This document shows positions 3,095 to 29,413 of a stretch of DNA of 30,206 nucleotides, in pieces. The stretch lies in NCBI GenBank assembly GCA_947085185.1, contig CAMTVK010000028.1:1-30206 (forward strand), given 5' to 3'. Every line of letters starts with the position of its first letter. The first letter of the stretch is position 1. The stretch comes from Candidatus Fraserbacteria bacterium (GTDB lineage: Bacteria > Bipolaricaulota > Bipolaricaulia > RBG-16-55-9 > DRXL01). The translations under genes and the position numbers were made by a program. Below the pieces are notes generated by a model that made no database searches, was not told where the DNA came from, and saw only the letters and a program-made list of their open reading frames with translations.

Positions 3095-4201
3095 ATGGAA
3101 GAGAAATCCTACAGTCCTGGCCTTGAAGGCATCATCGCCACGGAGACGCGCATCTCGTTTCTTGACGTCGAGCGCGAAGCGATCATCGTCCGGGGATATA
3201 ATCTTCTGGAGCTCATCCGCACTGCGACATATATAGATGTGCTGGGGATTTTGGTGGACGAAAAGCTTCCCGATGCCCAGCGCAAAGCCGCGTTCGAGCA
3301 TCAGCTCACGACGGCGTCCGTGCCCGGGGCAGTGTACGAGATCCTCGCCAAGCTCCCCTCTTCTATGCACGCCATGGATCGGCTGCGCACGGCCCTGTCG
3401 GCGTTGGCCGGCTTTGACCCTGAGGCCAATACGGCCGATCCGGAGCGGGAGCGCGCCAAAGCTCCGCGCTTGGTCGGCCAGATCGCTCAGATCGTCGCCA
3501 ATCTCACGCGGGTCGCTTCGGGGGATGCCCCCAAAACGTTTACCCCTGAGCACAGCTTCGCCGAGAACTTCTTGCGCACTATCGTCGGACGGGATCTCTC
3601 TGCGGCCGAGGTGCGCGCCTTCGAGCAGACGCTCATCGCCTACAGCGAGCATGAGCTGCCGAACTCGACGTTTGCTGCGCGCGTGGTCGCCTCGACCCTC
3701 TCGGACGCGTATGGGGCGCTGATAGCAGCTGTGGCCTCGCTTAAGGGGCCGCTGCATGGAGGGGCGAACGAAGCCGTCATGGCCATGCTCCAGCAGGCTC
3801 AGACGCCCGATGGGCTGGAGCGGCTTATCCGAGAGAAGCTCGCCAAGAAAGAGCGCATCATGGGGTTTGGGCATCGCGTCTATATGCGTCGGATCGATCC
3901 GCGCGCTCAGCTGCTCAAAGAGACCTTGCGAGAGCTCAGTGCCGTCAGGGGAAAGGGCGCAGAACTCTTGGCGATGTGCGAGCGCGGCGAAGAAGTCATG
4001 CGCGCGGAGAAGGGGATCTATCCGAACTTGGATTACTATGCCGCGCCGGTGTACGCCCTGCTGGATATCCCCGTGGAGCTCTATACGCCTCTCTTCTTTG
4101 CGGCGCGCTCCGCCGGGCTGCTGGCGCACATTATCGAGCAGCATCGGGAGAATCGGCTCTATCGGCCTCGCGCTCGCTACATCGGCCCCATGACGGTATG
4201 A
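3095..4201 (+). CDS. prpC: 2-methylcitrate/citrate synthase
   Basis: YSPGLEG, NSTFAARV, GPLHGGANE, GFGHRVY, PNLDYY; followed by prpD and prpB (mmgDEF-like order). Confidence 0.88.
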   Translation: MEEKSYSPGLEGIIATETRISFLDVEREAIIVRGYNLLELIRTATYIDVLGILVDEKLPDAQRKAAFEHQLTTASVPGAVYEILAKLPSSMHAMDRLRTALSALAGFDPEANTADPERERAKAPRLVGQIAQIVANLTRVASGDAPKTFTPEHSFAENFLRTIVGRDLSAAEVRAFEQTLIAYSEHELPNSTFAARVVASTLSDAYGALIAAVASLKGPLHGGANEAVMAMLQQAQTPDGLERLIREKLAKKERIMGFGHRVYMRRIDPRAQLLKETLRELSAVRGKGAELLAMCERGEEVMRAEKGIYPNLDYYAAPVYALLDIPVELYTPLFFAARSAGLLAHIIEQHRENRLYRPRARYIGPMTV

Positions 4202-4205
4202 CTCT

Positions 4206-5624
4206 ATGGCCGACCCTGTGCTGGAGCAGATCGCCGACTATGTGATCGAAGGCTCTATCACGAGCGCGGGGGCGTACCAGACGGCGCGCCTGGCGCTCAT
4301 GGACGCGCTCTCCTGTGCCCTGAGCGCGCTCGCCTCCCCAGAGTGCATCGCGCTTATTGGTCCGAGCGCTCCGGGCATGATCGTCCCCGATGGGGTGCGC
4401 GTGCCGGGAACTTCTTTGGTGGTGGATGTCGAGCACGGCGCGTTTGCCATCACGGCGCTCATTCGCTGGCTCGATTATAACGACACGTGGCTGGCGCGGG
4501 AGTGGGGGCATCCGTCGGATAACTTTGGGGCAATCTTGGCCGTGGCTGACTGGCACAGTCAGAAGCTGCGGCGCTGGGGCGAGCGCCCCTATCGGGTGCA
4601 GGACGTGCTCACGGCGGCTATTAAAGCCTATGAGATCCAAGGCGTGCTGTCGCTGGAGAACAGTCTGAATCGGCGCGGCTTTGATCATGTGCACTTTGTG
4701 AAGGTCGCGTCAGCGGCTGTGGCCGCGTGGCTGCTTGGCGGCACCAAGGAAGAGGTGCTCAGCGCCGTGAGCAACGCGTTCCTTGACGGGGCGGCGCTGC
4801 GCACTTATAGACACTTTCCCAACACCGGGCCGCGCAAGTCCTGGGCCGCTGCCGATGCGGCCCTCCGTGCGGTGCGCCTGGCCCTGTTTGCCCTGCGCGG
4901 GGAGCCGGGCTATCCTACAGCGCTGAGCGCTCCCCAGTGGGGCTTTGAGGCGGTAGTCATGGGGGGCGAGCCCCTGAGATTGGCCCGCCCCTTGGATAGC
5001 TACGTCATGGAAAATATTCTCTTCAAAGTCTCATACCCGGCAGAATTTCACGGGCAGACTGCTGTTGAGGCCGCCTTGGCTCTCCACCCCCAGGTGCGCG
5101 AGCGCCTCTCGGAGATCAAGCGCATCGTGATCGAGACCCAAGAGCCCGCCATGCGCATCATTGACAAGCCCGGCCCGTTCCGCAATCCCGCCGATCGCGA
5201 TCATTCGTTGCAGTATATGACAGCCGTGGCGCTGCTCTATGGGGAGCTGCGCTACGAGCACTATCTTGACCCCATTGCTTCAGATCCTAAGATTGCAGAG
5301 CTCATCGCCGCGATGGAGGTGCGCGAGAACCCCCAATTCAGTCGGGATTATCTTGATCCGCAGAAGCGCTCCATCGCCAATGCGGTGCAGGTCTTCTTCC
5401 GGGACGGCAGCGCGACCGAGCGCGTCGTGATCGAGTATCCTGTGGGGCATCGGCGGCGGCGTGCCGAGGCCGTGCCGCTGCTCCAAGAGAAGTTCTCTCG
5501 GGCGCTGCGGGCGGTCTACCCCGAGCGCAAAGCCGCATGGCTCTATGGGCTGATCGCGGAGAGCTCTGACTTGCCAGAGATGGCCGTCGATCAGTTCTTG
5601 GCCGAGCTGGCTCGGCCCGGGTGA
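4206..5624 (+). CDS. prpD: 2-methylcitrate dehydratase
   Basis: RWLDYNDTWLAREWGHPSDN, RKSWAA, FKVSYPAEFHGQTA, ADRDHSLQY, EYPVGHRRRR. Confidence 0.96.
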   Translation: MADPVLEQIADYVIEGSITSAGAYQTARLALMDALSCALSALASPECIALIGPSAPGMIVPDGVRVPGTSLVVDVEHGAFAITALIRWLDYNDTWLAREWGHPSDNFGAILAVADWHSQKLRRWGERPYRVQDVLTAAIKAYEIQGVLSLENSLNRRGFDHVHFVKVASAAVAAWLLGGTKEEVLSAVSNAFLDGAALRTYRHFPNTGPRKSWAAADAALRAVRLALFALRGEPGYPTALSAPQWGFEAVVMGGEPLRLARPLDSYVMENILFKVSYPAEFHGQTAVEAALALHPQVRERLSEIKRIVIETQEPAMRIIDKPGPFRNPADRDHSLQYMTAVALLYGELRYEHYLDPIASDPKIAELIAAMEVRENPQFSRDYLDPQKRSIANAVQVFFRDGSATERVVIEYPVGHRRRRAEAVPLLQEKFSRALRAVYPERKAAWLYGLIAESSDLPEMAVDQFLAELARPG

Positions 5625-5629
5625 GGGTA

Positions 5630-6526
5630 ATGGCGTGGCTCTTTGAGAGGGTAAGGGAACAAGCGCAGCTGGCGGAGCGCTTTGCGGAGCTGGTGCGGCG
5701 CGGGCGCCTGATCATCCCTGGGGCGCACGATCCCTTGGCGGCGCTGCTGGCCAAGCGCGCGGGATTCCCCGCGCTGTATCTGTCTGGAGCGGCGCTCTCG
5801 GCCAGTTATGGGCTGCCCGACTTGGGAGTGCTCACTCTTGAAGAAGTGGCGCGTCGTGCCGGGCGCATCGTGAGCGCGACCGATCTGCCCCTGCTGGTGG
5901 ACATAGACACGGGCTTCGGCGAGGCGCTCAACGTCGTGCGGACGGCGCGGGAGCTCTGCCACGTTGGGGTCGCTGCGGTGCAGATCGAAGACCAAGAGAT
6001 GCCCAAGCGCTGCGGGCATCTTGGGGGGAAGCGCTTGATCTCTTCAGAAGCGATGGTGCAGAAGATCCGAGCGCTCAAGAGAGCCTGCCCGACTCTGTTT
6101 GTGGTGGCGCGCACCGACGCGCGGGCCCTCGAAGGGATAGAGGGAGTGATCGAGCGCGCGCGGCTCTATCGGGAAGCCGGGGCCGATGCGATCTTCCCAG
6201 AAGCTCTGGAGAGCTTAGAGGAGTTCCAGCGCGTGCGCGCAGCGCTCTGCGGGCCTGCCCTGGCGAACTTGACCGAGTTTGGCAAGACCCCCGCTCTGAC
6301 AGCCCGCGAGCTTTTTGAGCTCGGCTATGAGATGGTGCTCTTTCCCGTGTCGGCACTGCGCGTGGCCGCGAAAGCTCTCGATGAGTTCTACACCCATCTG
6401 GCGCAGCATGGCTCCACCCGAGAATTCCTCGATCGGATGCAGACCCGAGCCGAGCTCTATGAGCTCATCGGGTACGCAGACTACGAGGAGTTCGATCGCG
6501 CGATCTCATCTGAGGGGAACCCCTGA
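5630..6526 (+). CDS. prpB: 2-methylisocitrate lyase
   Basis: YLSGA, LPDLG, DIDTGFG, IEDQ, KRCGH, ARTDA, NLTEFGKTP. ATG 5630 preferred over GTG 5621. Confidence 0.95.
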   Translation: MAWLFERVREQAQLAERFAELVRRGRLIIPGAHDPLAALLAKRAGFPALYLSGAALSASYGLPDLGVLTLEEVARRAGRIVSATDLPLLVDIDTGFGEALNVVRTARELCHVGVAAVQIEDQEMPKRCGHLGGKRLISSEAMVQKIRALKRACPTLFVVARTDARALEGIEGVIERARLYREAGADAIFPEALESLEEFQRVRAALCGPALANLTEFGKTPALTARELFELGYEMVLFPVSALRVAAKALDEFYTHLAQHGSTREFLDRMQTRAELYELIGYADYEEFDRAISSEGNP

Positions 6527-7182: not shown

Positions 7183-9507
7183 ATGCGCAATCCCGTTCGT
7201 ATGGTATGGCTTTTGGTGCTGCTCGTGGGCGCGGGGGCATCCGCTCACGCGAGTTCCACCGTGATCTTCGTGGACTGTACCCTGCCCGTCGAAACACCTG
7301 GGAACTTTAAGACCCTCACAGCTGCCCTCCAGTGGGCTCGTGACAGCCGCCAGAAACCCCGTTCAGAGTTTGGCGTCGTCATCGTCGCCCCATGCACCTA
7401 CCAAGAGAGCCTGACGGGGGAGAACGCCATCGACGTCAAAGGGCTCCAATGGATCTCCCGCGCCGGTCGCGATAAGACCAAGATCATCGGCCCCATCGAG
7501 ATCGTCGCCAAGAACGTGCTCTTTGTGGGGTTCGACGTGGATGCCAATCAAGCCGAACACGCCCTGACGATCAAAGAGAGCTTTGTGGCTATCTCCAATA
7601 GCAAATTTCATAATGCTGCCGGAGCGGGCGTCCTCATTGAGGGGGCCAAGGGCGTGATTCTGCTGCGCAACGAGATTTTCAATAATGGCGGCGAGGGCGT
7701 CAAAGCCCAAGAGTCGAGCGCCAACTTGAGACTCGAAGAGAACAAGATCCGCAGCAACGGCAGCATTGGGGTCTTCGTGGGGACCGACAGTGACCGCGCC
7801 GTCATCAGTCGCAATGAGATTCTCTTAAATAAAGGGGAAGGGATCTTCGTCACCGACAACGACGGCGTCGAGATCTCTACGAACGAGATCACGAATAACG
7901 CCATGGACGGCATCAAATTGGATAGAGCCAACGGCGCCGTGATTCTCAAAAACAAGATACTCTCCAGCGGCGTCTACGGCATCACCATCCAAGCTTCGGA
8001 TAACAACGAAGTCCGCGAGAACGAGCTTATGAATAACGGTGCCGGAGGGCTCTCTATCAAAGAGGGGGAGCGCTCCGCCAAGCGCAACACCATCCAAGGG
8101 AATACAATTGCAAACAACGCCCGCGCCGGAGCCGAGGGCGTCTTACTCTCCGGGGATGTTAGCGGCAACGTCTTTCTCAAAAACTCTCTTATGAGTAACA
8201 GCTTCGGGGTCAAGCTCGTCGCTCAAGAGTCGGGCCGCGCCCCAAGCAATAATACCTTCCAAGAGAACTCTATCAAAGACAGCCATGAAGATGGGCTCCT
8301 CCTCCAAGAGAGCGATGGCCGCAATACGTTCCGGTCAAACGAGCTCTCCGGCAACAACGGCTACGGCATCCGCGTAGCCGAACGGGCACGCAACGACACC
8401 TTCGCCAATAACGTGATCAAAGACAACGGCAAGGCCGGGATCTTCTTAGAGAAGACCTCTCGACACGTGCTGCGCGAGAATCAGATCTTGCTCAATGGGG
8501 AAGCTGGCGTGGTGCTCGATGGCGTCAGCAGCACCCTCCTCCAGCTCAATCAGATCCGCGAGAACGAGCGCGAGGGAATTCAGATCATCAATGGCGCCAA
8601 GCGCAATGATCTCATTGCCAATACAATCGAGATGAACCGCGGGCAGGGGATCGCCGTTCAAGGGGCCACAGAACTCGATATCCGTCAAAATACGATCTCC
8701 GGCAACTATGGGGTCGGGGTCTTGCTCGCTGAGGCGACCACCATCAACTTTGATCACAACAAAGTCCTCCAGAACAATCAAGGGGGAATAGACCTCGGAG
8801 CTGGCTCCAGCAAGCTTGACCTTGAGTTCAACGATATTGTGGGCAATACGCAATTTGGGCTGCGTCTTGCGGGAGGGCTTGATGAGACGACCATCAGGGC
8901 CGATCGCAACTGGTGGGGCGATCCCAAGGGGCCGTCGGGGGTCTTTGAGGGCCAAGGCAACAGCGTCCTAGGGATCCGAGTGAACCGCGATTGTACCATC
9001 GAGGGCATTCCGAACTATCAGTGTCCCATCGTCATGCCGTGGCTGCTCGCTCCGACCGCTGAGCTGGTCGAGAACTCTGTGACGGGCTGGATCTTCAGAA
9101 AATTCGGCAATGGCCGCGCCGAGTTCGACGCGACCCCCACCGCGAGCGTCCAGCTGCGCTTCTACAACGTGGACGTCAACTCCGATGGTGCGATCATTGT
9201 GGCCAGATATCGCAACGGGTTCCCGCAGCAACGCAATCTCTTAGAGAACCCAGTGAAGATCGTGAGCGTCCTGGTGAGCGGCATGCGGTCGGGCGTCGCG
9301 CAAATCGAGATCGAGTACACCGACGCCGAGATCAAGGGCTTGGACGAAACCAAGCTCTGCGTGCTCTACTTCGACCGCGAGACCAGCAGTTGGAAGCGTC
9401 TCGACTGCTTTGTCAAGACGCAAGCGAACATCGTCATAGCTGAGATCCCCGTGGCGGTGCTCAATGCAGCTCCGCCGATCGCTCTTGCGACGGGGGCGGT
9501 CAGATAA
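7183..9507 (+). CDS. Secreted right-handed parallel beta-helix (NosD/pectin-lyase-like) repeat protein
   Basis: Signal peptide ending AHA; many approx. 22-23 aa repeats of type NxIxxNxxxGIxL; NWWG motif; C-terminal beta domain; SD GAGGTGA; TATAAT at 7120-7125. Confidence 0.85.
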   Translation: MRNPVRMVWLLVLLVGAGASAHASSTVIFVDCTLPVETPGNFKTLTAALQWARDSRQKPRSEFGVVIVAPCTYQESLTGENAIDVKGLQWISRAGRDKTKIIGPIEIVAKNVLFVGFDVDANQAEHALTIKESFVAISNSKFHNAAGAGVLIEGAKGVILLRNEIFNNGGEGVKAQESSANLRLEENKIRSNGSIGVFVGTDSDRAVISRNEILLNKGEGIFVTDNDGVEISTNEITNNAMDGIKLDRANGAVILKNKILSSGVYGITIQASDNNEVRENELMNNGAGGLSIKEGERSAKRNTIQGNTIANNARAGAEGVLLSGDVSGNVFLKNSLMSNSFGVKLVAQESGRAPSNNTFQENSIKDSHEDGLLLQESDGRNTFRSNELSGNNGYGIRVAERARNDTFANNVIKDNGKAGIFLEKTSRHVLRENQILLNGEAGVVLDGVSSTLLQLNQIRENEREGIQIINGAKRNDLIANTIEMNRGQGIAVQGATELDIRQNTISGNYGVGVLLAEATTINFDHNKVLQNNQGGIDLGAGSSKLDLEFNDIVGNTQFGLRLAGGLDETTIRADRNWWGDPKGPSGVFEGQGNSVLGIRVNRDCTIEGIPNYQCPIVMPWLLAPTAELVENSVTGWIFRKFGNGRAEFDATPTASVQLRFYNVDVNSDGAIIVARYRNGFPQQRNLLENPVKIVSVLVSGMRSGVAQIEIEYTDAEIKGLDETKLCVLYFDRETSSWKRLDCFVKTQANIVIAEIPVAVLNAAPPIALATGAVR

Positions 9508-10482: not shown

Positions 10483-11613
10483 ATGCGTCGTCCTGAAGAG
10501 TTCATGCGTCGTGCATTGGAGCTGGCCGAGCGTGGTGCTGGCTGGACCAGCCCTAATCCGATGGTCGGCGCTGTCATTGTCAGAAAGAATATTATTGTAG
10601 GAGAAGGGTGGCACGAAGAATTTGGCGGCCCTCATGCGGAGTTTCTCGCGCTGCAGCGCGCGGGGGCGCTTGCCCGCAACGCGGATCTGTATGTCAATGT
10701 AGAGCCGTGCGTGGCAGCCCCCGGCAAGCACAACCCCCCGTGCGTGGATGAGATCATTCGTGCGGGCATTCGCAGAGTCTTTGTGGCGCTGCGCGATCCC
10801 GACCCCAGAGTGAACGGCCAAGGCGTGAAAACATTGCGCCAGGCGGGCATTGAAGTCATCGAAGGTGTCTTAGAAAATCAAGCCCGCAAGCTCAACGAGA
10901 TCTATCTCAAGTTCAAGACGACGGGCATGCCCTTTGTGACTCTGAAGATGGCCATGACGGCCGATGGGAAGATCGCTACTCACACCGGCGACTCCCACTG
11001 GATCTCTTCGGAGAGATCTTTGAGATTGGCGCATGAGCTGCGCCATCGCTATCGGGCTATTATTGTGGGCATTGGCACGGTGCTCGTGGACAATCCCCAC
11101 CTGACCGCGCGCTTGGAGAAGGCGGCGCGCAATCCCATCCGGATCGTGCTCGACTCGCGCGGGCGCATCCCCCTTGACTCCGAGGTGGTGCGCTCCGCCG
11201 CGCAGATCCGAACGGTCCTCGCGACGACGGACGCTCTCGCGCCCGAAAGGGCGCAGGCCCTCCAGCGTGCTCACGTGGAAGTATGGCGGCTGCCCGCCCG
11301 GGAGGGCCATGTAGATCCATACGCTCTTGTCCAAAAACTCGCGCACGAGCAGATCGACAGCGCCCTCATCGAAGGGGGCTCGGAGATCGCGTGGAGCTTT
11401 CTCAGCGCCAAACTGATTGATAAAGTGCTCTTCGTCATCGCTCCCAAGATCGTGGGAGGGCGAGCAGCCCCCAGCCCCGTCGGCGGGATCGGCTTTGAAC
11501 GCCTCAGCCAAGCGCTCCCGCTCAAAAACGTCACGGTCTCTCAAATCAACGGCGATGTCTTGTATGAGGCATATTTGGACAGAGATTGCAAGGGCCTTGG
11601 AGGTCCTCTATAA
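10483..11613 (+). CDS. ribD: Bifunctional riboflavin biosynthesis deaminase/reductase
   Basis: PNPMVGAVIV, HAE, EPC...PPC Zn ligands, LKMAMTADGKIA, IEGG, APKIVGG. Confidence 0.96.
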   Translation: MRRPEEFMRRALELAERGAGWTSPNPMVGAVIVRKNIIVGEGWHEEFGGPHAEFLALQRAGALARNADLYVNVEPCVAAPGKHNPPCVDEIIRAGIRRVFVALRDPDPRVNGQGVKTLRQAGIEVIEGVLENQARKLNEIYLKFKTTGMPFVTLKMAMTADGKIATHTGDSHWISSERSLRLAHELRHRYRAIIVGIGTVLVDNPHLTARLEKAARNPIRIVLDSRGRIPLDSEVVRSAAQIRTVLATTDALAPERAQALQRAHVEVWRLPAREGHVDPYALVQKLAHEQIDSALIEGGSEIAWSFLSAKLIDKVLFVIAPKIVGGRAAPSPVGGIGFERLSQALPLKNVTVSQINGDVLYEAYLDRDCKGLGGPL

Positions 11614-11614
11614 T
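11586..11614 (+). promoter_or_regulatory. Promoter for htrA embedded in the ribD 3' end
   Basis: TTGCAA(11586-11591)-17 nt-TATAAT(11609-11614). Confidence 0.7.
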
Positions 11615-11647
11615 CGCAGAAAGGAATCTTATGGGAGGTTGAACCCT

Positions 11648-13222
11648 ATGAGAAAAGCGATACTCATCGTCAGCGTCTTAGTGCTCGCGTTCTTAGCGGG
11701 CGTAGCGGTCGATTGGACGGTGCAGCGGACTCCGTCGGTGACCGAGCGTCCGCTGCCCCAAAGCCCAGCAGACAAGCCCGCACCAGTCATGCTGGCGCAG
11801 GCTCCAACGTCGGCCACCGATCTCTTCGCTCAGCTGACCAAAGAGCAAATCGAGCAGCTTATCACGGCTGCAGGGCAGAATGCTATCAAGACGGCTATTA
11901 AGAGGGCCGGCCCAGCGGTCGTCCAGCTCGAGGTGATCAAACAGAGTTCAGGGCGCAGTCCGTTCGAAGACTTCTTCGATGACCCGTTCTGGCGACGCTT
12001 CTTCGGTGAGCCCTTCGACCGCAATCGGCGCATCGAACGGTCACTCGGCAGCGGATTCATCACGGAATTCCAAGGACAAAAAATTATCATCACGAACAAC
12101 CACGTCGTCGAGGGCGCTACAAGCATTCGGATCACATTGCCTGATGGGCGCACGCTCGACGGCGAGCTCGTCGGCGGCGATGCGTTCTTAGACATCGCGG
12201 TCGTGCGCCCTAAGGCTCCACACGCTTCTTATGAACTGCCCACCGTCGAGCTTGGCGACTCCGACAAGATTGAGATCGGCGATTGGGCTATTGCTATTGG
12301 GAATCCTCTGGGCTTCCAACATACGGTGACCGCGGGGATCATCAGTGCACTCCACCGGGACTTTCCTAAGCCCGACGGCTCCGGTCAGTTCCAAGATATG
12401 ATCCAGACAGACGCTGCGATCAATCCTGGCAATTCCGGTGGCCCCTTGCTCGACGCGCTTGGGCGGGTCATCGGCATCAATACGGCGATCGCTGTGAACG
12501 CCGAGGGGATTAACTTTGCGATCCCCATCAATGCTGCGCTGCGAGTGCTGCCCAGTCTGTTAGCTTCGGGCAAGGTCACCCGTGCTTGGCTCGGTGTGGT
12601 CATTCAAGAGCTGACAGAAGAGATCGCACAGCCCTTGGGGGTCGAGCCCTACTCGGGCGTCTTGATCGCCGATGTGCGCCCCGATGGGCCGTCTTATGGG
12701 ATCTTACAGCGGGGCGATATCGTGCTCAGCGTGGACGGCAAGGCCGTCAAGAGAATCTTCGAGCTCCAGCAAGAGATCATGTACCGTCCGGTGGGCTCGA
12801 AAGTCCAAGTAGAGATTCTCCGCGGTGGGGCTCGTCAGACGGTCGAGGTGACGCTTGGGGAGCGCCCCAGCGAGCAAACCCTGATGGGCTCTGCTCCGAG
12901 CGTTCCTAGTCAGCCCATCCCGCAAGGCCAGGGCATAGAGAAGTTCGGGCTCAAGGTCCAAGCGCTCACGCCCCAGATCGCGCGGCAGCTCAATCTGCCC
13001 AGCACAGCTGAGGGCGTCGTTATCGCTGAAGTGCAGCCGGGGAGCCGAGCATTTTGGGCCAGACTCCAAGTGGGCGATCTGATCATCGAGATCAACCGTC
13101 AGCCCGTCAAGACCCTCGACGATTGGAACAAGCTCGTGGGCGAGCTTCCCGATGACGCTCGCGTGCTGTTGACGATCATCCCGCGGGGTGGGGGCAGCGC
13201 GCGGTTTGTGCCGTTGCGGTAA
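11648..13222 (+). CDS. htrA: Do/DegP-type HtrA serine protease with two PDZ domains
   Basis: Start moved to ATG 11648 (SD GGGAGG); N-terminal hydrophobic anchor; GSGF, TNNHV, DIAV, IQTDAAINPGNSGGPL. Confidence 0.95.
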   Translation: MRKAILIVSVLVLAFLAGVAVDWTVQRTPSVTERPLPQSPADKPAPVMLAQAPTSATDLFAQLTKEQIEQLITAAGQNAIKTAIKRAGPAVVQLEVIKQSSGRSPFEDFFDDPFWRRFFGEPFDRNRRIERSLGSGFITEFQGQKIIITNNHVVEGATSIRITLPDGRTLDGELVGGDAFLDIAVVRPKAPHASYELPTVELGDSDKIEIGDWAIAIGNPLGFQHTVTAGIISALHRDFPKPDGSGQFQDMIQTDAAINPGNSGGPLLDALGRVIGINTAIAVNAEGINFAIPINAALRVLPSLLASGKVTRAWLGVVIQELTEEIAQPLGVEPYSGVLIADVRPDGPSYGILQRGDIVLSVDGKAVKRIFELQQEIMYRPVGSKVQVEILRGGARQTVEVTLGERPSEQTLMGSAPSVPSQPIPQGQGIEKFGLKVQALTPQIARQLNLPSTAEGVVIAEVQPGSRAFWARLQVGDLIIEINRQPVKTLDDWNKLVGELPDDARVLLTIIPRGGGSARFVPLR

Positions 13223-17051: not shown

Positions 17052-20000
17052 ATGCTGAGGTTGGTAGATCGCTACGTGATCCGCGAAATGATCTTTCCGT
17101 TTCTACTTGCTGTTGCCGGCTTCGTCTTGTTTATCATACTCAATCTCATCCCTCAACTCTCCGACTTCATGATTGATCGCAATATCTCCATGCAAACGCT
17201 CTTTCAGATGCTCTTTTGGCGGTTACCAGAGCTCTTAGTCTATGGGCTTCCTGTGGGCGTGCTCTTCGCGATCTTCTGGGCCTTGGGACGACTCAGCCAT
17301 GACCGCGAATTGATCGCCCTGCAAGCCGCCGGCTTCTCTTTGCGAAGGCTGATGCTCCCCGTCGTCCTGATGGGCTTGATCACCACCGTCACGGCGTTCG
17401 CCGTAGGAGAACTCTGGACGCCCTGGGCCAATCATCAATATTATAATCTGTTGCGCGAGATCTTCTTCATGCGCTCCGTGCCCCAGATCCGCGAGTCCAC
17501 GTTTATGAAGATCAGCGACACCGCCTATGCGTATATTGAGCGCTACGACCCTACTACAAAAAAACTCTCTCACGTGATGGTCTTCGACAAGGGCGGTGGG
17601 GAGTACCTTCCTGAGCTGGAAGCACGCTTCCCAAAGGTCATTGTTGCTGCCGAAGGCCTCTGGGACGGGGAGTACTGGCGCCTCACCGATGGGAAGCTCC
17701 ATAAACTCCGGGACGATGGCCAGTTCGAGTACACCGTGACTTTTGCGAAGCTGTCTTTACGGGCTGGACCGTCTCTGCAACGGCTGCTCGTGGAGCAACG
17801 CACTCCCCATGAGATGAGCATCGCCGAGCTCTCCGAGCAGATCGAGGTGCTCCAGCGCAGCGGCTTAGGCGCTGAAAGCTTGCTCGTTGAGCTGCATGCG
17901 AAGATCGCTGTGCCCTTCTCTGCTCTGATCTTTGCGCTCTTTGGGGCGCCGCTCAGTTTGATCTTTGCTCAGGGGGGAGCGCCGCGTGGGCGGGCCGCCG
18001 GGGTCATCATCAGCGTGCTGTTGGTCGCGAGCTATCAGGGGCTTCTGCTCTGGATGTCCACGCTGGGAAAACGCGGCCTGATCGCACCTCCTCTTGCGCC
18101 ATGGGTGCCGAATATGCTCTTTGGGGTGCTCGGCGTGGTGCTCGTGATCTGGCTGGATCGGCTCAGCCAACTCGATCTCTTTGCACGGCTGCGTCGGCTT
18201 GTGCCGTTCGTGCTCATCATAGCAGGGGGGGGCACGGTGGGATGGGCACAGGAGCCGCCTCCCATCTCGCTCGATCTTCGTGCCGACCGACTGACCGTCG
18301 CTCGCGATTGGCAGAAGCTCTCTGCTGAGGGCCACGTCAGGCTTGTCTATGAGAAGGGCTCGCTTCACGCGGACCGACTGAATGCTCAGCGCGTCGGGGA
18401 GAGCCAACACTGGCGCATCACTGCGGAGGGGGGCGTCGTGTGGGAAGGGGAGGGCCTCAAGGGAGAAGCAAAGAAGATCGAGCTGCAGATCGCGTGGGAC
18501 GGCTCTCGCTGGGCGCTCAGCGAAGCACACTTATTCACAGCTCGCATAGAGTATGAGCGCGGGAGCTTGCAAGCTCATGAGATGTTCTTAAAACCCGAGC
18601 GCTCGGTGTGGGTGGCCCATGCGCAGAGATTTCTCGGTCAGGCAAGCTTTGAGAGCGCTGCGAAAAAGCGAGAGACCCTGCGCTTCCAAGGGGAGGAGGC
18701 GCGTGCCACCCTCTCCGCCGAGGGCCAGCTCAAGCTCCTCGAGATCACCAAGGGCGAGATCACCACGTGCACCTGCGCAGAACCTATCAGCCGGGCTGCA
18801 TATTCCATCGCGGCAGGCAGCGTGCTCCTGGAGCCAGACGAGTCCGTCTGGGCCACAAATATTACGCTCAAAACCTACGGGATCCCAATCTTTTGGGCCC
18901 CGGTCTACTTTGCTTCGCTCAAAGAAGAGACGAAAAACCCGCTGCTGCCGGATTTCGGACAGCTTCCCGATCGCGGATGGTATTTCCGCTGGCGCTTGCC
19001 GTTCGTCGTAGACCGAGAGAACACGGGGACAGTCTCGATTGATTTCTACACGAAGCTTCCCGAAGTGGGGATGGGGATCGAGTACAGATATAAATTCTGG
19101 GAGCAGCAAGGGCAGATCTCGGTCTATCGTTTGGTGGGGCGCGGCGAGTCCTGGGCGACAGACTGGGCGCATCAAGCCCAGCTTCCCTTCAACACGCGGC
19201 TCTCTGTGGGGATTGCGTGGCGCACTGGGCTGTTAGAGCAAGAAGCTCAGCGGCTCTTCTCGCGGGTGCTGCTCTCAGGAAGCTTTGAATCTGTGCGTTG
19301 GAGCGCCCTGTGGAGCCGCGATCAGTATCTTGTGCTGCCCGAAAGCGAAGAGGCCGTGCTCTATCGCTTTTTAGAGAAAGCCCCAGAGCTGATGCTCTCG
19401 CTTGTGCCGTGGCGATTGGGGCCATTGTCTGTCACGTTCAGTGCGAGCTGGGGCACCTATCGTGAGAAAAAGCTCGATCGAGAGAGCTTGGACGAGAGCA
19501 CACGCTGGGATGCCGTCATCGGCCTGCAATCGCTTGCTTTGGGAAATGACCTCTTGCGCATCCAAGCCAGCACACACTATCGGCTCTCGCTCTACGCACC
19601 CCAGCGCTTCCGTCGCGAGGCGTATGATCTCACAGTCGGGGTGAGCACGCACCCCGTGCCCGGCCTGAGCGCCGACACCACATATGCGTACCGGCGCGTT
19701 GTGGGGCAAAGCCCGTTCAGCTTCGATACGCTCGACCTGATGCACCATGTCCGCTTCCGCGCAGGCTGGCCTACTGCGCCCTTCAAACCGAACCTGACTT
19801 GGGGATACGACCTCCGACAGCAGACGTTTGAGCTTCTGCGCCTTGGGCTGCGCCATCAATTTCTGGGGTTTGCCACTACGATCGATCTCGAATACGATCT
19901 CAACCGTTCGCTCTGGCACAGGGCGGCGCTCACTCTGCAGGGGTCTGTTGTGCAGCTCAGCACGGCGTATCTCTTCCCGACACGAAATTTCGAGGATTTG

Positions 20001-20321
20001 ATAGTCAAGATCAGCTGGGGCGTGCAGCGTTTGGGGATGAGCATAGATCTCAAGCGCTTCTCTCTTCAGCGACTCAATCTTGAAACGAGCTGGCAATGGT
20101 GGTCTGAGTGGGAGTTTTCGCTCAAGGGCGAGTACGATGTAGCAAGACAGAGATGGACGGCGTTACAAGTGGGGATTATCAAAAAATTCTGCAATGCGTG
20201 CTGGCAACTGGGGGTCTACAGCGACAGCTCCAGGGTATGGCTTCAGGCGCAGATCAATGCGTTCCCCACAGCGCGCGTGCGTTACTCTCCCACGGATCAG
20301 AGGCTGTCATTTGGCTCCTAG
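17052..20321 (+). CDS. LptF/LptG-family permease fused to OstA-like and LptD-like domains
   Basis: aa 1-370: DRYVIRE, LSHDRELIALQAAGFS, ELHAKIAVPFS, APWVPN. After aa 400: ADRL..AEGHVRL..LHADRL, then ITTC..YSIAA..PIFWAP, then aromatic-rich beta-strand sequence. Confidence 0.82.
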   Translation: MLRLVDRYVIREMIFPFLLAVAGFVLFIILNLIPQLSDFMIDRNISMQTLFQMLFWRLPELLVYGLPVGVLFAIFWALGRLSHDRELIALQAAGFSLRRLMLPVVLMGLITTVTAFAVGELWTPWANHQYYNLLREIFFMRSVPQIRESTFMKISDTAYAYIERYDPTTKKLSHVMVFDKGGGEYLPELEARFPKVIVAAEGLWDGEYWRLTDGKLHKLRDDGQFEYTVTFAKLSLRAGPSLQRLLVEQRTPHEMSIAELSEQIEVLQRSGLGAESLLVELHAKIAVPFSALIFALFGAPLSLIFAQGGAPRGRAAGVIISVLLVASYQGLLLWMSTLGKRGLIAPPLAPWVPNMLFGVLGVVLVIWLDRLSQLDLFARLRRLVPFVLIIAGGGTVGWAQEPPPISLDLRADRLTVARDWQKLSAEGHVRLVYEKGSLHADRLNAQRVGESQHWRITAEGGVVWEGEGLKGEAKKIELQIAWDGSRWALSEAHLFTARIEYERGSLQAHEMFLKPERSVWVAHAQRFLGQASFESAAKKRETLRFQGEEARATLSAEGQLKLLEITKGEITTCTCAEPISRAAYSIAAGSVLLEPDESVWATNITLKTYGIPIFWAPVYFASLKEETKNPLLPDFGQLPDRGWYFRWRLPFVVDRENTGTVSIDFYTKLPEVGMGIEYRYKFWEQQGQISVYRLVGRGESWATDWAHQAQLPFNTRLSVGIAWRTGLLEQEAQRLFSRVLLSGSFESVRWSALWSRDQYLVLPESEEAVLYRFLEKAPELMLSLVPWRLGPLSVTFSASWGTYREKKLDRESLDESTRWDAVIGLQSLALGNDLLRIQASTHYRLSLYAPQRFRREAYDLTVGVSTHPVPGLSADTTYAYRRVVGQSPFSFDTLDLMHHVRFRAGWPTAPFKPNLTWGYDLRQQTFELLRLGLRHQFLGFATTIDLEYDLNRSLWHRAALTLQGSVVQLSTAYLFPTRNFEDLIVKISWGVQRLGMSIDLKRFSLQRLNLETSWQWWSEWEFSLKGEYDVARQRWTALQVGIIKKFCNACWQLGVYSDSSRVWLQAQINAFPTARVRYSPTDQRLSFGS

Positions 20322-20379
20322 CATTGCCGAGGAGCACACGGTATACTAGAGCGATTCTCGCGATGGGGTGATTGCTCAT

Positions 20380-22386
20380 ATGGAGGTACGGACTGTATGT
20401 TTTGTAGGGCACGCGGGGTCCGGCAAGACGGCCCTGGCGGAGGCGCTCTTGAAAAGAGGAGGCCACGACGCGAAATTCGACTTCACACCAGAAGCTAAAA
20501 GCCGAGGGCACTCCGTAGACTTAGGAGTGGGCAGCCTCCTGCAGGGGGAGCGACTCTTGCAGGTTCTCGATACGCCCGGCTTCAGCGAGTTCGTCGAGGA
20601 GGTCTACAAAGCTCTGTGGGCCGCGGAGACAGCCGTGCTCGTGGTCAACGCCGAAAAGGGCGTAGAAGTCCACACCGAGAAGGCGTGGGAGTTGGTGCAA
20701 AAGTTCAAGAAGCCGTCTCTTGTGGTCATAAACAAGATGGACCTGCCCAATGCGGACCTCCCCAAAGCCCTCGAATCGCTGCGCTCGACGCTGCCGGGGA
20801 GATTCGTCTGTTTGGAACTGCCCATCCGCGAGGGAGGGAACTTCGTGGGCTATGTGGACTTGATCGAGAACAAAGCGATCTATACAGACAAGCGCAAGGG
20901 CGAGATCCCAGAACACTTGAAAGCCACCGTCGCGGCGGAGCGCGAACAGCTCTTAGAAGTGCTCGCTGAAGCCAACGACGAACTGATGGTCCATTTTCTT
21001 GAGGGCCACGAGATCCCCACAGACGAAATCCGCCGGGCGCTCAAGGACGCGCTGCGCCAGCGTATCTTCAGCCCGGTGCTCTGTACTTCCGTCACGTCCG
21101 GAGCCAGCATAGATGCCCTCTTAGAGATATTGCAGACCGAAACCCCTCAATTTACTGATGTGAATCACCCTGCAGGGAGCTTCATCGCTCAGGCGTTCTA
21201 TCTCTTCTCGGATCAGTATTTGGGCAAACTGGCATTTGTGAAGGTCCTGGGCGGGACCCTCTCTGAGGGGGATACGATCACGAACATCAACACCGGAGCA
21301 CAAGAGCGCGTCAAGGAGATCTTGCGGTTTCACGGCGACAAATCCGAAAAGATCCCACAAGCCCAGGCGGGGGAGATCGTCGCGCTCGCCAAGTTGAGCG
21401 ATTGTCAATTGGGCGAGACGTTTGCAGCAACCGGCTCGGCCCAGAAGCTGCCTTGGATAGAGTTCCCCAAGCCGGTCTTTGCCCGCGCAGTGACCCCGGA
21501 AACCCAAGCCGATGACGAAAAGATGAGCAGCGTGCTCAAAGAGATCGCCAGCGTCAAAGCCACGCTCAGTTTCTATCGAGACGCCGTGACCCACGAGGCG
21601 ATCCTCGCGGGCTTGGGGGACACCCATTTGAGCGTCTTCACTGAGCGCTTGAAGAACCGCTATGGCGTCTCAGTCAAGCTGCACAAACCGCATATCCCCT
21701 ATAAAGAGACGATTCTCAAAGTTGCGCAAGGGCAGTATAAACACAAGAAGCAGAGCGGGGGGCGCGGACAATACGGCGAGGCCCACCTGCGCGTCGAGCC
21801 CATCCCCGGCAAGACTTATGAGTTTGTGGACGAGGTCAAAGGCGGGGTCATCCCACGCGAGTATATCCCTGCGGTGGAGAAGGGTGTGCTGGAAGCCATG
21901 CAGCAGGGGATTTTGGCGGGCTACCCCATGACCGACGTGCGCGTAGCTGTGTATTACGGCAGCTACCATGAAGTGGACTCGAACGAGATTTCGTTCAAGA
22001 TCGCTGGGGCCCATGCGTTTCGGTTGGCCGCCCAAGCGGCCCAGCCCGCGTTGCTGGAACCCATCTATAAAGTGACGATCTGGACGCCCTCAGATTACAC
22101 AGGCGACATCATCAGCAGTCTCAACGGCAAGCGGGGACGCATCTTAGGGATGGGCATGGAAGAAGAGACTTTCGATGGGAGCCTCAAGCGCGACAAGATC
22201 GAAGCTGAGGTCCCCCTTGCTGAGATGTTAGACTATGCGTTGGAGCTCAAGTCTATCACGCAAGGGCGGGCGACGTTCCAGATGGAGTTTGTGCGCTATC
22301 AAGTCGTGGCCAGTGAAAAGCTTGCGGAAGAGCTCTTGAAGCGCGAGGGCAAGACGATCAGCAAACCAACTGCAGAAGCGAAGTGA
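20380..22386 (+). CDS. fusA2: Elongation factor G paralog (EF-G2 type)
   Basis: GHAGSGKT, RGHSV, DTPGF, NKMD, KKQSGGRGQYG, SYHEVDS, LLEPI; not in a str operon; SD GGGGTGA before ATG 20380. Confidence 0.9.
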   Translation: MEVRTVCFVGHAGSGKTALAEALLKRGGHDAKFDFTPEAKSRGHSVDLGVGSLLQGERLLQVLDTPGFSEFVEEVYKALWAAETAVLVVNAEKGVEVHTEKAWELVQKFKKPSLVVINKMDLPNADLPKALESLRSTLPGRFVCLELPIREGGNFVGYVDLIENKAIYTDKRKGEIPEHLKATVAAEREQLLEVLAEANDELMVHFLEGHEIPTDEIRRALKDALRQRIFSPVLCTSVTSGASIDALLEILQTETPQFTDVNHPAGSFIAQAFYLFSDQYLGKLAFVKVLGGTLSEGDTITNINTGAQERVKEILRFHGDKSEKIPQAQAGEIVALAKLSDCQLGETFAATGSAQKLPWIEFPKPVFARAVTPETQADDEKMSSVLKEIASVKATLSFYRDAVTHEAILAGLGDTHLSVFTERLKNRYGVSVKLHKPHIPYKETILKVAQGQYKHKKQSGGRGQYGEAHLRVEPIPGKTYEFVDEVKGGVIPREYIPAVEKGVLEAMQQGILAGYPMTDVRVAVYYGSYHEVDSNEISFKIAGAHAFRLAAQAAQPALLEPIYKVTIWTPSDYTGDIISSLNGKRGRILGMGMEEETFDGSLKRDKIEAEVPLAEMLDYALELKSITQGRATFQMEFVRYQVVASEKLAEELLKREGKTISKPTAEAK

Positions 22387-24240: not shown

Positions 24241-24807
24241 ATGCGTCTCTTTTACTGTTTTGAGCTCCCCCATGCTGTGCGTGCGCAGCTTTATGAGATT
24301 GCGCAGCTGTTGCGCGCTCCAGAAGCGCGCGTGAGCTGGGTGCGCCCGGAAAATTTTCACATCACCGTCAAGTTTCTCGGCGAAGTCGAGCCTTCTGTCG
24401 TAGAGCCCCTGAAAGCACTTGGGGCCCAGATCGCTGAGAGATTCCAAAAATCTGAGATCGTCTTCGACACCGTCGGGGCGTTCCCCACCGCGAACCGACC
24501 AAGAGTCCTATGGATCGGCTCTCGTCATCCCCCCAACGTGATCTTCGATATTCAAGAAGACTTGGAGCAAGCATTGACAAAGATGGGATTCGAGGCAGAA
24601 CAGCACTTTATGCCGCATGTGACCGTCGGCCGGATCAAGGACGAGCGCACCGTCCACGAAGGGTGGTTTGCTCAAATGCTCTCCCAGATCAAGCCCTTTG
24701 AGAGTCGAGCGCTCCTCACACACTTGACGCTTATGGAAAGCCAGCTATCGCCGGGTGGGGCGATCTACATTCCCGTGGCAAGCTGGGAGTTCCAAGATGC
24801 CCTTTGA
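24241..24807 (+). CDS. thpR: RNA 2',3'-cyclic phosphodiesterase (2H phosphoesterase)
   Basis: MRLF start, two HxT motifs (HITVKFLG, PHVTVGR), PRVLW, S.L...G.IY. Confidence 0.92.
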   Translation: MRLFYCFELPHAVRAQLYEIAQLLRAPEARVSWVRPENFHITVKFLGEVEPSVVEPLKALGAQIAERFQKSEIVFDTVGAFPTANRPRVLWIGSRHPPNVIFDIQEDLEQALTKMGFEAEQHFMPHVTVGRIKDERTVHEGWFAQMLSQIKPFESRALLTHLTLMESQLSPGGAIYIPVASWEFQDAL

Positions 24808-25219
24808 GTATTTTGATGTCACAGCCGAAGTAGGAATTCGCGCGTGGGGCAAGACGCTCCCTGAGGCGTTTGCGGAAGCAGCCCGCGCCCTCTTCGAGCT
24901 GATGGTCGATACAAAATCTGTGCGCCCACAGCGACCTATCTCGGTCGCGCTGAGCGCAGAGTCACTTGAGCTGCTGTTGGCCGACTGGCTCAACAGACTG
25001 ATCTTAGAGCGCGACCGCACGGGCTGTGTCTTCTCACAATTTCGTGTGGCTATCGCTCCTCAAGCGCAAGGCTTCTCACTGACGGGAGAAGCCCAAGGTG
25101 AACCCTTGGATCGCGCGCGCCATGACCCGCGCATAGACGTCAAAGCCGTTACTTATAATAATCTGAGCGTTCTCCAGCAAGCCCAGAGAGTCCAGGTCGA
25201 ATGCGTGTTGGATATCTAA
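24797..25219 (+). CDS. Archease
   Basis: MPFEYFDVTAEVGI, LLADWLN, VKAVTY, C-terminal LDI; SD GGGAG before ATG 24797. Confidence 0.92.
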   Translation: MPFEYFDVTAEVGIRAWGKTLPEAFAEAARALFELMVDTKSVRPQRPISVALSAESLELLLADWLNRLILERDRTGCVFSQFRVAIAPQAQGFSLTGEAQGEPLDRARHDPRIDVKAVTYNNLSVLQQAQRVQVECVLDI

Positions 25220-27423: not shown

Positions 27424-28464
27424 TCACGGTGCGCCCGCGGCCTGCTCCAGCGTCCGCAGCACCTCATGCAGGTCCATATTCTGCAGCTTCTGCCAAATGT
27501 CCTCACCCGTCAGCTCGCTCAAGATACGCGCGGCCTCTTTGGCATTGGGGAAGCCGCGCTGGCTGATACGCTGCCAGAACGTCTTGATCACCCCCTCCCC
27601 GTGCTTCTGCGCGATCTGCAGCCAGAAAGCGAGCGATACACCATAGCCTGCTGCAATCTTCACTGCCGCGGCGCCCTGTGGTAAGAGCCTTCGGCTATCT
27701 TCTCTACCAAAAAAGTATACTTCTCTATGCCCAAGAAACTCCTGTGTCAGATTGTAAGTGGGAGGCTCACGCCCTTGTAGCGCTTCTTGTACATTCTTTC
27801 GCCTTCCCTCCAAGAAATGTCTATGAACCTCTAGATCGAATTCTTTGCTGACTATGTATCCAACGTATTCGGCTAGGCCGTCCTCAAACCCTCGAGTCCG
27901 AAGATCGGAGCGCCATCCCTTATCTAGTCCGCTCTCTAAAGCTTCGTTCACAGCCCTATGCAGCATCTCATGGGGCATAGTCAAGTAAATAGACAGTCGA
28001 GTCTTTAAGTCTGCCTCTTGTAGGCTTTGCAAGCCTGGGGGAACCTTTACTGGAAAAGGGGGATTTGGAGACCTCGGGCGCTGTTGTAGCGCACTCAGCA
28101 GAGATTGCTTCACCTGTTGTTTGAGATAAATCCCTCCGATCTCTGCCCGCTCGCTTTCCGACAATGCCACCAGGACAACACCAAAAGCCCCTAAGGCAAT
28201 CCCAAGTCTCCCGGCTACAAGCTGCCAGCCTTGTCGAAGAGCGTGGATAACGTCGCCAGCTAGCCTGCGCTGCTGCGGCTCAAAGTAGACGGTGATCTCC
28301 CCCTGTGTAAGGTGCTGCATGGAGGAGAGATCAATCTCCTTGAGGGGTTTGCTCCGATCCCAAACTGAGGAGGTTGTGACCGTAAGTGTAACAGTTGGGC
28401 CTCCCAAGACCATCAAGAGGGCTAACAACAATATGCCCAGCAGAATTAAGAGTTCGTTCCTCAA
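27424..28464 (-). CDS. Exported or membrane-anchored gluzincin-like (peptidase MA-like) protein
   Basis: TTG start with SD GGGGAGGTGA; hydrophobic N-terminus; HEMLH plus downstream GFEDGLAEY and YGVSLAF. Confidence 0.75.
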   Translation of the reverse strand: MRNELLILLGILLLALLMVLGGPTVTLTVTTSSVWDRSKPLKEIDLSSMQHLTQGEITVYFEPQQRRLAGDVIHALRQGWQLVAGRLGIALGAFGVVLVALSESERAEIGGIYLKQQVKQSLLSALQQRPRSPNPPFPVKVPPGLQSLQEADLKTRLSIYLTMPHEMLHRAVNEALESGLDKGWRSDLRTRGFEDGLAEYVGYIVSKEFDLEVHRHFLEGRRKNVQEALQGREPPTYNLTQEFLGHREVYFFGREDSRRLLPQGAAAVKIAAGYGVSLAFWLQIAQKHGEGVIKTFWQRISQRGFPNAKEAARILSELTGEDIWQKLQNMDLHEVLRTLEQAAGAP

Positions 28465-28730: not shown

Positions 28731-28931
28731 ATGAGCCTCCAAGAAGCCGTGCAAGAGTTCGAGAGCATGTTGGAGCAAATCGCCAGATACCAGACCTCTG
28801 GCAATGGCTCCGTCGAGGCCTTCCTCAGGGAGTACAAGATCGATTTTGAACCCTCCCCAGCAGTCCGACCCAAAGCGCAGGGGCTCTCCAGCTCAGCTGT
28901 TATCCGGGAGATTCGCGAAGGCCGATGGTGA
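28731..28931 (+). CDS. Putative VapB-like antitoxin
   Basis: 66 aa, overlaps the PIN gene start; C-terminal SSAVIREIRE motif. Confidence 0.65.
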   Translation: MSLQEAVQEFESMLEQIARYQTSGNGSVEAFLREYKIDFEPSPAVRPKAQGLSSSAVIREIREGRW

Positions 28932-29413
28932 AGGTCTACCTTGACACCAGTGCCCTCATCAAGCGATACATCGAAGAGGAGGGCACAGAGATCATAGACG
29001 TTCTCTTCGACAGGGCCTCGCCGCAGCTCACCTTGGTCATCTCGTTGTGGAACCTAAGTGAGAGCATGGTCGTTGTGGACAAATATCGTCGGCGTGGAGC
29101 CCTCTCTGATGAGGAGTTGCGGGGACTGGTGCGACAGTTGATCACGGAGATTCGAGAGTATTGGGGGAAGGGGGTATTGAGGATCGTGCCGCTGCCGCCG
29201 GACCTTCTGGTAGAGACGTGGCGGTACATTCTGGATCAGCATGTCTATGCCGGCGATGCTGTACAGATAGTGACCTGTGTTCGGGAGCGATGTGACTTTT
29301 TAGTGGCAGCGGACCAGCGCCTGGTGGAGGTATGTCGGCAGCTGGGGATCGAGTGTGTTAATCCGGAGTTGGCTGAGGACCGGCAGAAGATAAGAGATCA
29401 GCTCCTCCGTTAG
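28925..29413 (+). CDS. vapC: PIN-domain (VapC-type) toxin
   Basis: VYLDTSALIKRY.EE.GT, SE, DAVQI, AADQRL acidic catalytic positions. Confidence 0.9.
   Translation: MVKVYLDTSALIKRYIEEEGTEIIDVLFDRASPQLTLVISLWNLSESMVVVDKYRRRGALSDEELRGLVRQLITEIREYWGKGVLRIVPLPPDLLVETWRYILDQHVYAGDAVQIVTCVRERCDFLVAADQRLVEVCRQLGIECVNPELAEDRQKIRDQLLR

Follow-up and report, generated by a model that had tools for sequence, protein, structure and literature searches.

The closest described counterpart of the gene studied here is G4FGC1 of Thermotoga maritima, presented in a 2023 PNAS paper as a 'fusion pABC permease' that carries LptF/G, LptA and LptD domains in one open reading frame (ORF) of about 122 kDa (PMC10160955). 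The organism is described there as a diderm without lipopolysaccharide (LPS) genes, and the protein as conserved across the Thermotogae and enriched in the toga. A second point of reference is the Lpt system of diderm Firmicutes, which resembles the one described below in its single or homodimeric LptF/G, the lack of LptE and a divergent LptD of the same family (PMC5007114; PMC5491611; PMC13018214), with a homodimeric LptF/G reported for Acetonema (PMC13018214), and which differs in that Negativicutes encode LptD separately. Here, we analyzed a window of 30,206 nucleotides, contig C28 of a Candidatus Fraserbacteria genome (hereafter G000, completeness 96.8%), in which one forward-strand ORF at 17052..20321 joins an LptF/G permease to an LptD. 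The initial annotation of this frame had guessed that similar fusions were already reported, which was right: the fused architecture is in print for Thermotoga (PMC10160955). New here is that cultured Halanaerobiales carry the fusion. Moreover, from the linker between the two halves, from relatives in which the gene is split again and from the partner genes, we consider it quite likely that signal peptidase I processes the product behind Ala399, giving a permease of 45 kDa for the inner membrane and an LptD of 79 kDa for the outer membrane. We do not claim a new system; what we offer is an amendment, open to test, of a model already published, and one in which we infer both the cleavage and the cargo.

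Domain composition of the fused reading frame

The ORF is a single stop-free frame of 1089 aa (124 kDa), in which an LptF/G permease (aa 1-372) is followed by a signal-peptide-like linker (aa 379-399), then by a jellyroll resembling LptA and a barrel of the LptD type, and its named homologs belong to Candidatus Bipolaricaulota/Acetothermia. By its published description, G4FGC1 has the same domain order in one ORF (PMC10160955). A fusion of this kind could in principle arise through misassembly or read-through of two adjacent genes, and in family f10 of the phylum the separate lptF/G and lptD genes do overlap by a few bases; yet the frame is fused in 115 genomes, in two closed genomes (G038 and G041) and in records from cultured Halanaerobiales. 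In addition, a contig from an independent study spans 18016-18308 of the window with 0 differences and 0 gaps. Because this contig bridges the junction and the orthologs keep the fused frame, the chance that we are dealing with an artefact is negligible. No stop or frameshift lies near 18150-18250, and the uninterrupted 1089-aa frame of the initial annotation stands. Promoter and terminator scans gave results at chance level.

The permease (17052..18167) comprises six hydrophobic helices, visible as hydropathy peaks, and a periplasmic jellyroll. A Pfam scan assigns aa 7-365 to LptF_LptG (PF03739; E-value 1.8e-79, 267.8 bits against a cut-off of 27.9), and this is the only LptF/G gene matched in G000. 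Since its scores fall below the equivalog cut-offs of both TIGR04407 (172 against 230) and TIGR04408 (164 against 240), the permease cannot be assigned to LptF or to LptG.

The second half was less accessible to standard models: the LptD_N/OstA match at aa 410-479 is below cut-off (E-value 0.006), and the barrel is matched by none of the LptD models of Pfam or NCBIfam, PF04453 and PF19838 included. A profile built from 48 sequences (the C-terminal half itself and 47 relatives), by contrast, matches LptD of Pseudomonas aeruginosa (8h1r) at an E-value of 7.8e-27, LptD of Neisseria gonorrhoeae at 4e-21 and LptA chains at about 1e-9. An AlphaFold2 model built from a 60-sequence alignment (mean predicted local distance difference test score, pLDDT, 84.5; predicted TM-score 0.55) shows a six-helix permease, a linker of low confidence (residues 385-405 under 50) and an all-beta remainder. 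When this model was searched with Foldseek, the 15 best rows were LptD (E-values 4e-24 to 6e-19), followed by LptF/G. VIA-align placed LptG (6mjp_G) on aa 1-369 (Z 27.6, root-mean-square deviation (rmsd) 6.7, 345 aligned), LptA (2r1a) on aa 404-533 (Z 12.8, rmsd 2.2, 119 aligned) and LptD on aa 633-1088 (Z 16.6, rmsd 6.5, 367 aligned). By profile and predicted fold, the C-terminal half is an LptD, and the earlier proposal that the frame joins an LptF/G permease to a jellyroll and an LptD-like barrel was borne out by Pfam, profile, Foldseek and VIA-align alike.

Within this half, the LptA/OstA-like beta-jellyroll (aa 400-632; 18249..18947) would form the N-terminal domain of the predicted mature LptD, and the barrel occupies aa 633-1089 (18948..20318); DSSP counts 30 strand elements in the model between aa 634 and 1087, the LptD reference being a closed barrel of 26 strands. 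Two cysteines are invariant in 60/60 sequences: C573 (18768..18770), in a TTC motif of the jellyroll, whose column in the profile corresponds to the jellyroll cysteine in LptD chains of solved structure, and C1050 (20199..20201), near the end of the barrel, which falls on the C-terminal CC-W motif in 8h1r. The pair is also kept in the Halanaerobiales fusions, and we predict that the two residues are disulfide partners, by analogy with E. coli LptD. Across loci L001-L051, the length of the jellyroll is stepwise, with about 190 aa in family f9, 230 and 300 aa in others and about 430 aa in family f10, and it may track periplasm width.

The linker as a probable internal signal peptide

Behind transmembrane helix 6 (TM6), the sequence runs from a basic segment, which is conserved, through a hydrophobic core to a polar end. 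The basic segment (aa 369-382; 18156..18197), predicted to be cytoplasmic from the topology of LptF/G, would form the n-region of an internal signal; among 60 aligned fusions, drawn from the first 74 homolog matches, R379, R381 and R382 are kept in 52, 51 and 51, respectively, and the model places a helix at aa 376-391. The h- and c-regions (aa 383-399; 18198..18248) lead up to a predicted signal peptidase I site between A399 and Q400 (bases 18248/18249), Q400 standing directly after the linker; residues 379-399 and Q400 agree exactly with the initial annotation. At this site the residue at -1 is Ala in 52/60 fusions and A, G or S in 58/60, the residue at -3 is small in 58/60, -2 is variable and +1 is Q or E in 45/60. 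No other hydrophobic stretch is as poorly conserved as the h-region, which has a top-residue frequency of 0.31 against 0.50-0.81 for TM1-6. Counted independently of the alignment, a small-x-Ala-[QEA] motif behind a hydrophobic core is present in 44/60 fusions; 500 shuffles gave 14.2 +/- 3.0 and never more than 22, and where TM1, TM3 and TM5 end the motif occurs in 2, 9 and 1 of the 60. In fusions of the Halanaerobiales type, where +1 is acidic, a pattern that also allows D at this position is found in 56/75 against 12.2 +/- 3.2 expected. Exported proteins of G000 share the Ala|Gln signal ending, as seen for BamA (..ALAMA|Q) and a binding protein (..GASA|QPP). The linker thus carries the basic n-region, hydrophobic h-region and small -3 and -1 residues expected of a Sec signal processed by signal peptidase I, and cleavage is predicted to yield products of 44.9 kDa (permease) and 79.4 kDa (LptD).

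Additional evidence comes from relatives in which the two halves are separate genes. In the phylum set of 149 genomes with a completeness of at least 80%, PF03739 is present in 139, nearly always once, and by hand tally 115 of these 139 carry LptF/G in a frame of at least 948 aa. The remaining 24 short-frame genomes comprise seven true splits at the junction (six from family f10, and G035) and one, G112, in which the frame breaks within the jellyroll; the other 16 are explained by contig ends, contig breaks or runs of N, ten of them inspected and six judged by coordinates. In family f10 the gene order is lptC-like, lptB, lptF/G, lptD. The stop codon of lptF/G lies a few residues past TM6, and lptD begins at or beside it with its own start codon and a signal peptide at its N-terminus, in register with the internal signal of the fusions. 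The resemblance of residues 379-399 to a Sec signal peptide, as first annotated, is therefore borne out both by the -3/-1 pattern and by this register. In a FastTree phylogeny of 48 LptF/G domains (360 columns, midpoint root, all rows kept), f10 and two fused proteins are sister groups (support 1.0), and a single clade of fused Bipolaricaulota without f10 is rejected by the approximately unbiased (AU) test (p 4e-70, from 2000 replicates where the program recommends more). Because f10 nests within fused lineages and the alternative is rejected, we regard its split as secondary, and the covalent link is therefore dispensable in f10.

The published view of the Thermotoga protein is a different one. 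Its figure draws the fusion as a single, uncut protein that spans the envelope, whereas we read the studied ORF as a cut precursor, and the string 'signal pept' has 0 occurrences in the main text (PMC10160955). Applied to our locus, the linker would be a permanent seventh transmembrane helix and the whole protein a covalent bridge that joins the inner membrane to the outer one, the second possibility raised in the initial annotation. Besides the published drawing, several observations speak for such a bridge and against cleavage. The best 19-residue hydropathy mean of the linker is 1.85, equal to TM6, a value that does not separate signal from permanent helix and makes a permanent helix physically possible. 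The long and variable jellyroll (about 190 to 430 aa) could span the periplasm, and a separate LptA was found in 0/5 genomes searched, where PF03968 matched only the fusion with a model that is insensitive here (LptC was also missed in 3/5). Moreover, the genomes are kin, which means that our counts suggest more independence than there is, and we settled on the motif pattern once the alignment had been inspected. Nevertheless, we consider the permanent bridge unlikely. In two distant groups, Ala at -1 and a small residue at -3 are retained although the core drifts, for which a permanent helix offers no reason, and re-split genes exist in f10. In addition, the gap from -1 to the first jellyroll strand is 3-28 residues (median 8); judged by the geometry of the LptF/G-LptC stack in the E. 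coli bridge, such a tether would be too short to lift this strand to the top of the stack.

The Thermotoga proteomic data bear on the same question. Dataset S4 of the published study lists 41 peptide rows (27 distinct) for G4FGC1, all from toga samples and all at aa 411-1020, that is, with 0 listed peptides from the first 410 residues (PMC10160955). With nine homologs digested as proxies, the permease half supplied 15-37% of the detectable peptides, with the T. maritima junction assumed, and from these digests the chance of drawing none of 23 peptides from the permease half of a whole protein is at most 0.023. These positions favour cleavage, although they are suggestive only and several features of the data weaken them. 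The paper reports 25 + 37 unique peptides, of which 16 + 25 rows are listed (79/115 spectra by our hand sum); no fraction showed the permease half, the two inner-membrane samples giving 0 spectra each; YidC was present in the toga fraction as well, SecY being unlisted; and the peptide search was fully tryptic (PMC10160955). The position of the junction in G4FGC1 is, as mentioned, our assumption. Taken with the -3/-1 pattern, the re-split genes and the short tether, the peptides nevertheless favour the polyprotein cut by signal peptidase, the first of the two possibilities that had been proposed.

Cleavage might also be slow, partial or carried out by another protease, such that a lasting tethered precursor places new LptD over its own transporter. 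Retention of the fusion in 115/139 genomes suggests some benefit of the link, and one of the three S26 signal peptidase I paralogs of G000 (C17:60837-61358, C1:131288-131782 and C16:42383-42907) might be specialized. On the other hand, the site resembles the ordinary signal peptides of the genome, the closed genomes G038 and G041 have the fusion with one S26 peptidase each (frames of about 400 aa), and re-splitting is tolerated in f10; we find this variant quite improbable. Even less probable is that the LptD half is translated separately from an internal start codon before the linker. Split relatives do use starts at the same place, and an in-frame ATG, GTG or TTG precedes the core in 26/57 fused junctions; however, 31/57 junctions, including the one studied here, have no such codon between TM6 and core, ATG occurs in only 8/57, and the positions are scattered. 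In the absence of a stop, the permease would in any case still be made with the barrel attached. Shine-Dalgarno-like motifs were found at none of the 57 junction starts, which is uninformative given that the ORF's own start also lacks one.

Proposed assembly route, partner genes and probable cargo

Cleavage by signal peptidase I suggests the following route. The six permease helices would enter the membrane via Sec, their C-terminal end staying on the cytoplasmic side, whereupon the seventh hydrophobic stretch would re-start translocation much as an N-terminal signal does. Once released, the LptD half would cross the periplasm to BamA and close the C573-C1050 disulfide, while the permease may retain the spent signal as a C-terminal tail, pair with itself and work with LptB and LptC. 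Because no separate LptA was found, we propose that LptC docks directly on the long LptD jellyroll, which would stand in for LptA. The initial annotation expected inner- and outer-membrane parts in a 1:1 ratio; this holds per polypeptide, but not per transporter, since with the single LptF/G gene of G000 the transporter would be a homodimer, with two LptD made for each. A known precedent is FbcH of Bradyrhizobium japonicum, a cytochrome b-c1 precursor that is split at an internal signal peptide. There, as proposed here, an internal Sec signal lies behind a polytopic membrane protein and sets free another subunit of the one machine; both FbcH products, however, stay in the inner membrane, whereas here the second would be an outer-membrane barrel that needs BamA. 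If the precursor is indeed cut, one Sec-inserted protein feeds two membranes in a ratio that is fixed genetically, a rare arrangement in bacteria.

Compared with the canonical Lpt system of E. coli and its kin (LptB2FGC-LptA-LptDE), G000 shares the LptF/G fold, the jellyroll bridge, the LptD barrel with its cysteine pair, LptB and LptC. It differs in having one LptF/G gene instead of two and an in-frame rather than a separate LptD; neither LptA nor LptE was found in the sample of five genomes from its phylum, LptE having been searched with PF04390, a model that is insensitive in this phylum, and TamB was likewise found in 0/5. LptB scores over cut-off in 50/61 genomes. In G000, a search for lptB, lptA, lptC and lpx genes recovered lptB and lptC in a pyrG-lptC-lptB cluster without kds genes or lptA (C6:73178-76097), and a bamA-ompH-fabZ cluster lacks lpxD and lpxA (C2:63809-67088; gene names in both clusters partly by eye). 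LpxB and WaaA had 0 matches in G000, and LpxC was found in 1/61 genomes, G035, which is 5% contaminated. The phylum's first closed genome is also described as having no LPS genes (PMC6092417). Since lpxC, lpxB and waaA gave no match in G000, LPS is an unlikely cargo; judging from gene content, it is likely to be a non-LPS glycolipid or phospholipid, and a lipoprotein is possible too.

Two groups of genomes deserve separate mention. G035 (L038:3483-5343, L039:3530-5956) is the only genome with both LpxC and LpxB, through transfer of the LPS pathway or contamination of the bin; its standalone LptF/G lies beside lptB and falls outside the phylum clade, and the start of its standalone LptD resembles the fused junction. 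The four genomes G037, G046, G133 and G134 (genus g18, family f8; 87-93% complete) are all without LptF/G and all keep Omp85/BamA, and the two that were checked have no LptB over cut-off, a possible loss of the Lpt bridge with retention of the outer-membrane foldase.

Related fusions in other lineages

In the phylum, 58/61 relatives match the protein. Beyond it, a search of 1.8 billion representatives with the C-terminal half gave 327 matches, and among the 150 listed the fusion occurs in Halanaerobiales and other Bacillota. Searching with a Halanaerobiales protein returned 79 close relatives, 75 of them of at least 1000 aa, and the cultured carriers include Halothermothrix orenii (WP_015923480.1) and Halanaerobium hydrogeniformans (WP_013405042.1). 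A profile of the C-terminal half made from Bipolaricaulota alone matches 79/79 of these relatives, and hhalign gives a match to aa 388-1036 of the H. orenii protein with a probability of 100. In the LptF/G tree, one clade of Bipolaricaulota and Firmicutes fusions is neither part of the best tree nor rejected (AU p 0.26).

A 2016 survey lists lpx genes, lptA, lptC, lptB and an lptF/G (WP_015923468 in H. orenii) for Halanaerobiales and reports no clear LptD/E (PMC5007114). We considered whether the fusion is the LptF/G of this survey and rejected the idea, as other accessions are listed there (PMC5007114). Because its accession differs and is numbered between lpxC and skp of the listed cluster in H. 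orenii, the fused protein is likely a second LptF/G paralog; Halanaerobiales differ from G000 in keeping lpx genes and LptA and probably in this second paralog. By profile, the C-terminal half of the fusion is likely the LptD that the survey could not find. We infer that the listed LptF/G is standalone, which would give a heterodimer with one LptD. Four proteins (P0356-P0359) are standalone LptD of the Halanaerobiales type with an N-terminal signal peptide, showing that fused and split forms coexist in that group. A survey of Firmicutes by Taib et al. from 2020 may already mention such a case. In titles and abstracts of the literature, subscription papers lying outside this scope, we found no account of cleavage or of an occurrence in Bipolaricaulota or Halanaerobiales.

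In the Atlas, Thermotogota are represented by an LptF/G cluster with a feature score of 0.97, and the cluster of rank 6 holds 77 proteins of about 1077 aa, taxa unrecorded, that combine LptF_LptG with a canonical LptD (PF04453) and probably represent an independent fusion of the same kind. It seems reasonably probable that we are looking at a recurrent polyprotein strategy, used by Bipolaricaulota, by Halanaerobiales and other Bacillota, by Thermotogota and, independently, by a lineage with canonical LptD, in which one Lpt precursor holds an inner-membrane permease and an outer-membrane translocon and is split by signal peptidase I. If true, this would overturn the published envelope-spanning Thermotoga model, supply the missing LptD of Halanaerobiales and describe a minimal lipid bridge of four chains (LptB, LptC, LptF/G and LptD) for non-LPS cargo. 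Because annotation pipelines label the fused proteins only 'LptF/LptG permease', LptD counted as absent in atypical diderms may have been missed, which bears on the age of the complete Lpt bridge. The question of cleavage is open to test in cultured T. maritima, H. orenii and H. hydrogeniformans.

Other combinations were also encountered. A triple fusion, suggested by frames of 1290-1531 aa, was rejected: the three extensions inspected (L090-L092) are an unrelated upstream frame without an LptB or LptC match. A homolog search restricted to proteins of 1926-5000 aa returned none and is silent on other fusions. Among proteins P0075-P0086, LptF/G is fused differently, either in tandem LptF-LptG proteins, one of them named Acidobacteriota, or with methionyl-tRNA formyltransferase, one of these named Bacteroidales.

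Finally, the window holds further genes around the fused ORF. An elongation factor G-like paralog (NF009381) lies directly 3' of it at 20368-22386 on the forward strand, a neighbour that is kept in 13 other family f1 loci and has no evident functional link. On the reverse strand, two ORFs without a Pfam match (660-2051 and 27424-28464) have hydrophobic N-terminal stretches and HExxH motifs and are possible exported zinc peptidases. The forward strand also carries a methylcitrate-type cluster with citrate synthase, PrpD and lyase (3095-6526), an exported beta-helix protein (7183-9507), an HtrA/DegP protease (11417-13222), a 2'-5' RNA ligase-archease pair (24241-25219) and a PIN-domain gene (28925-29413).

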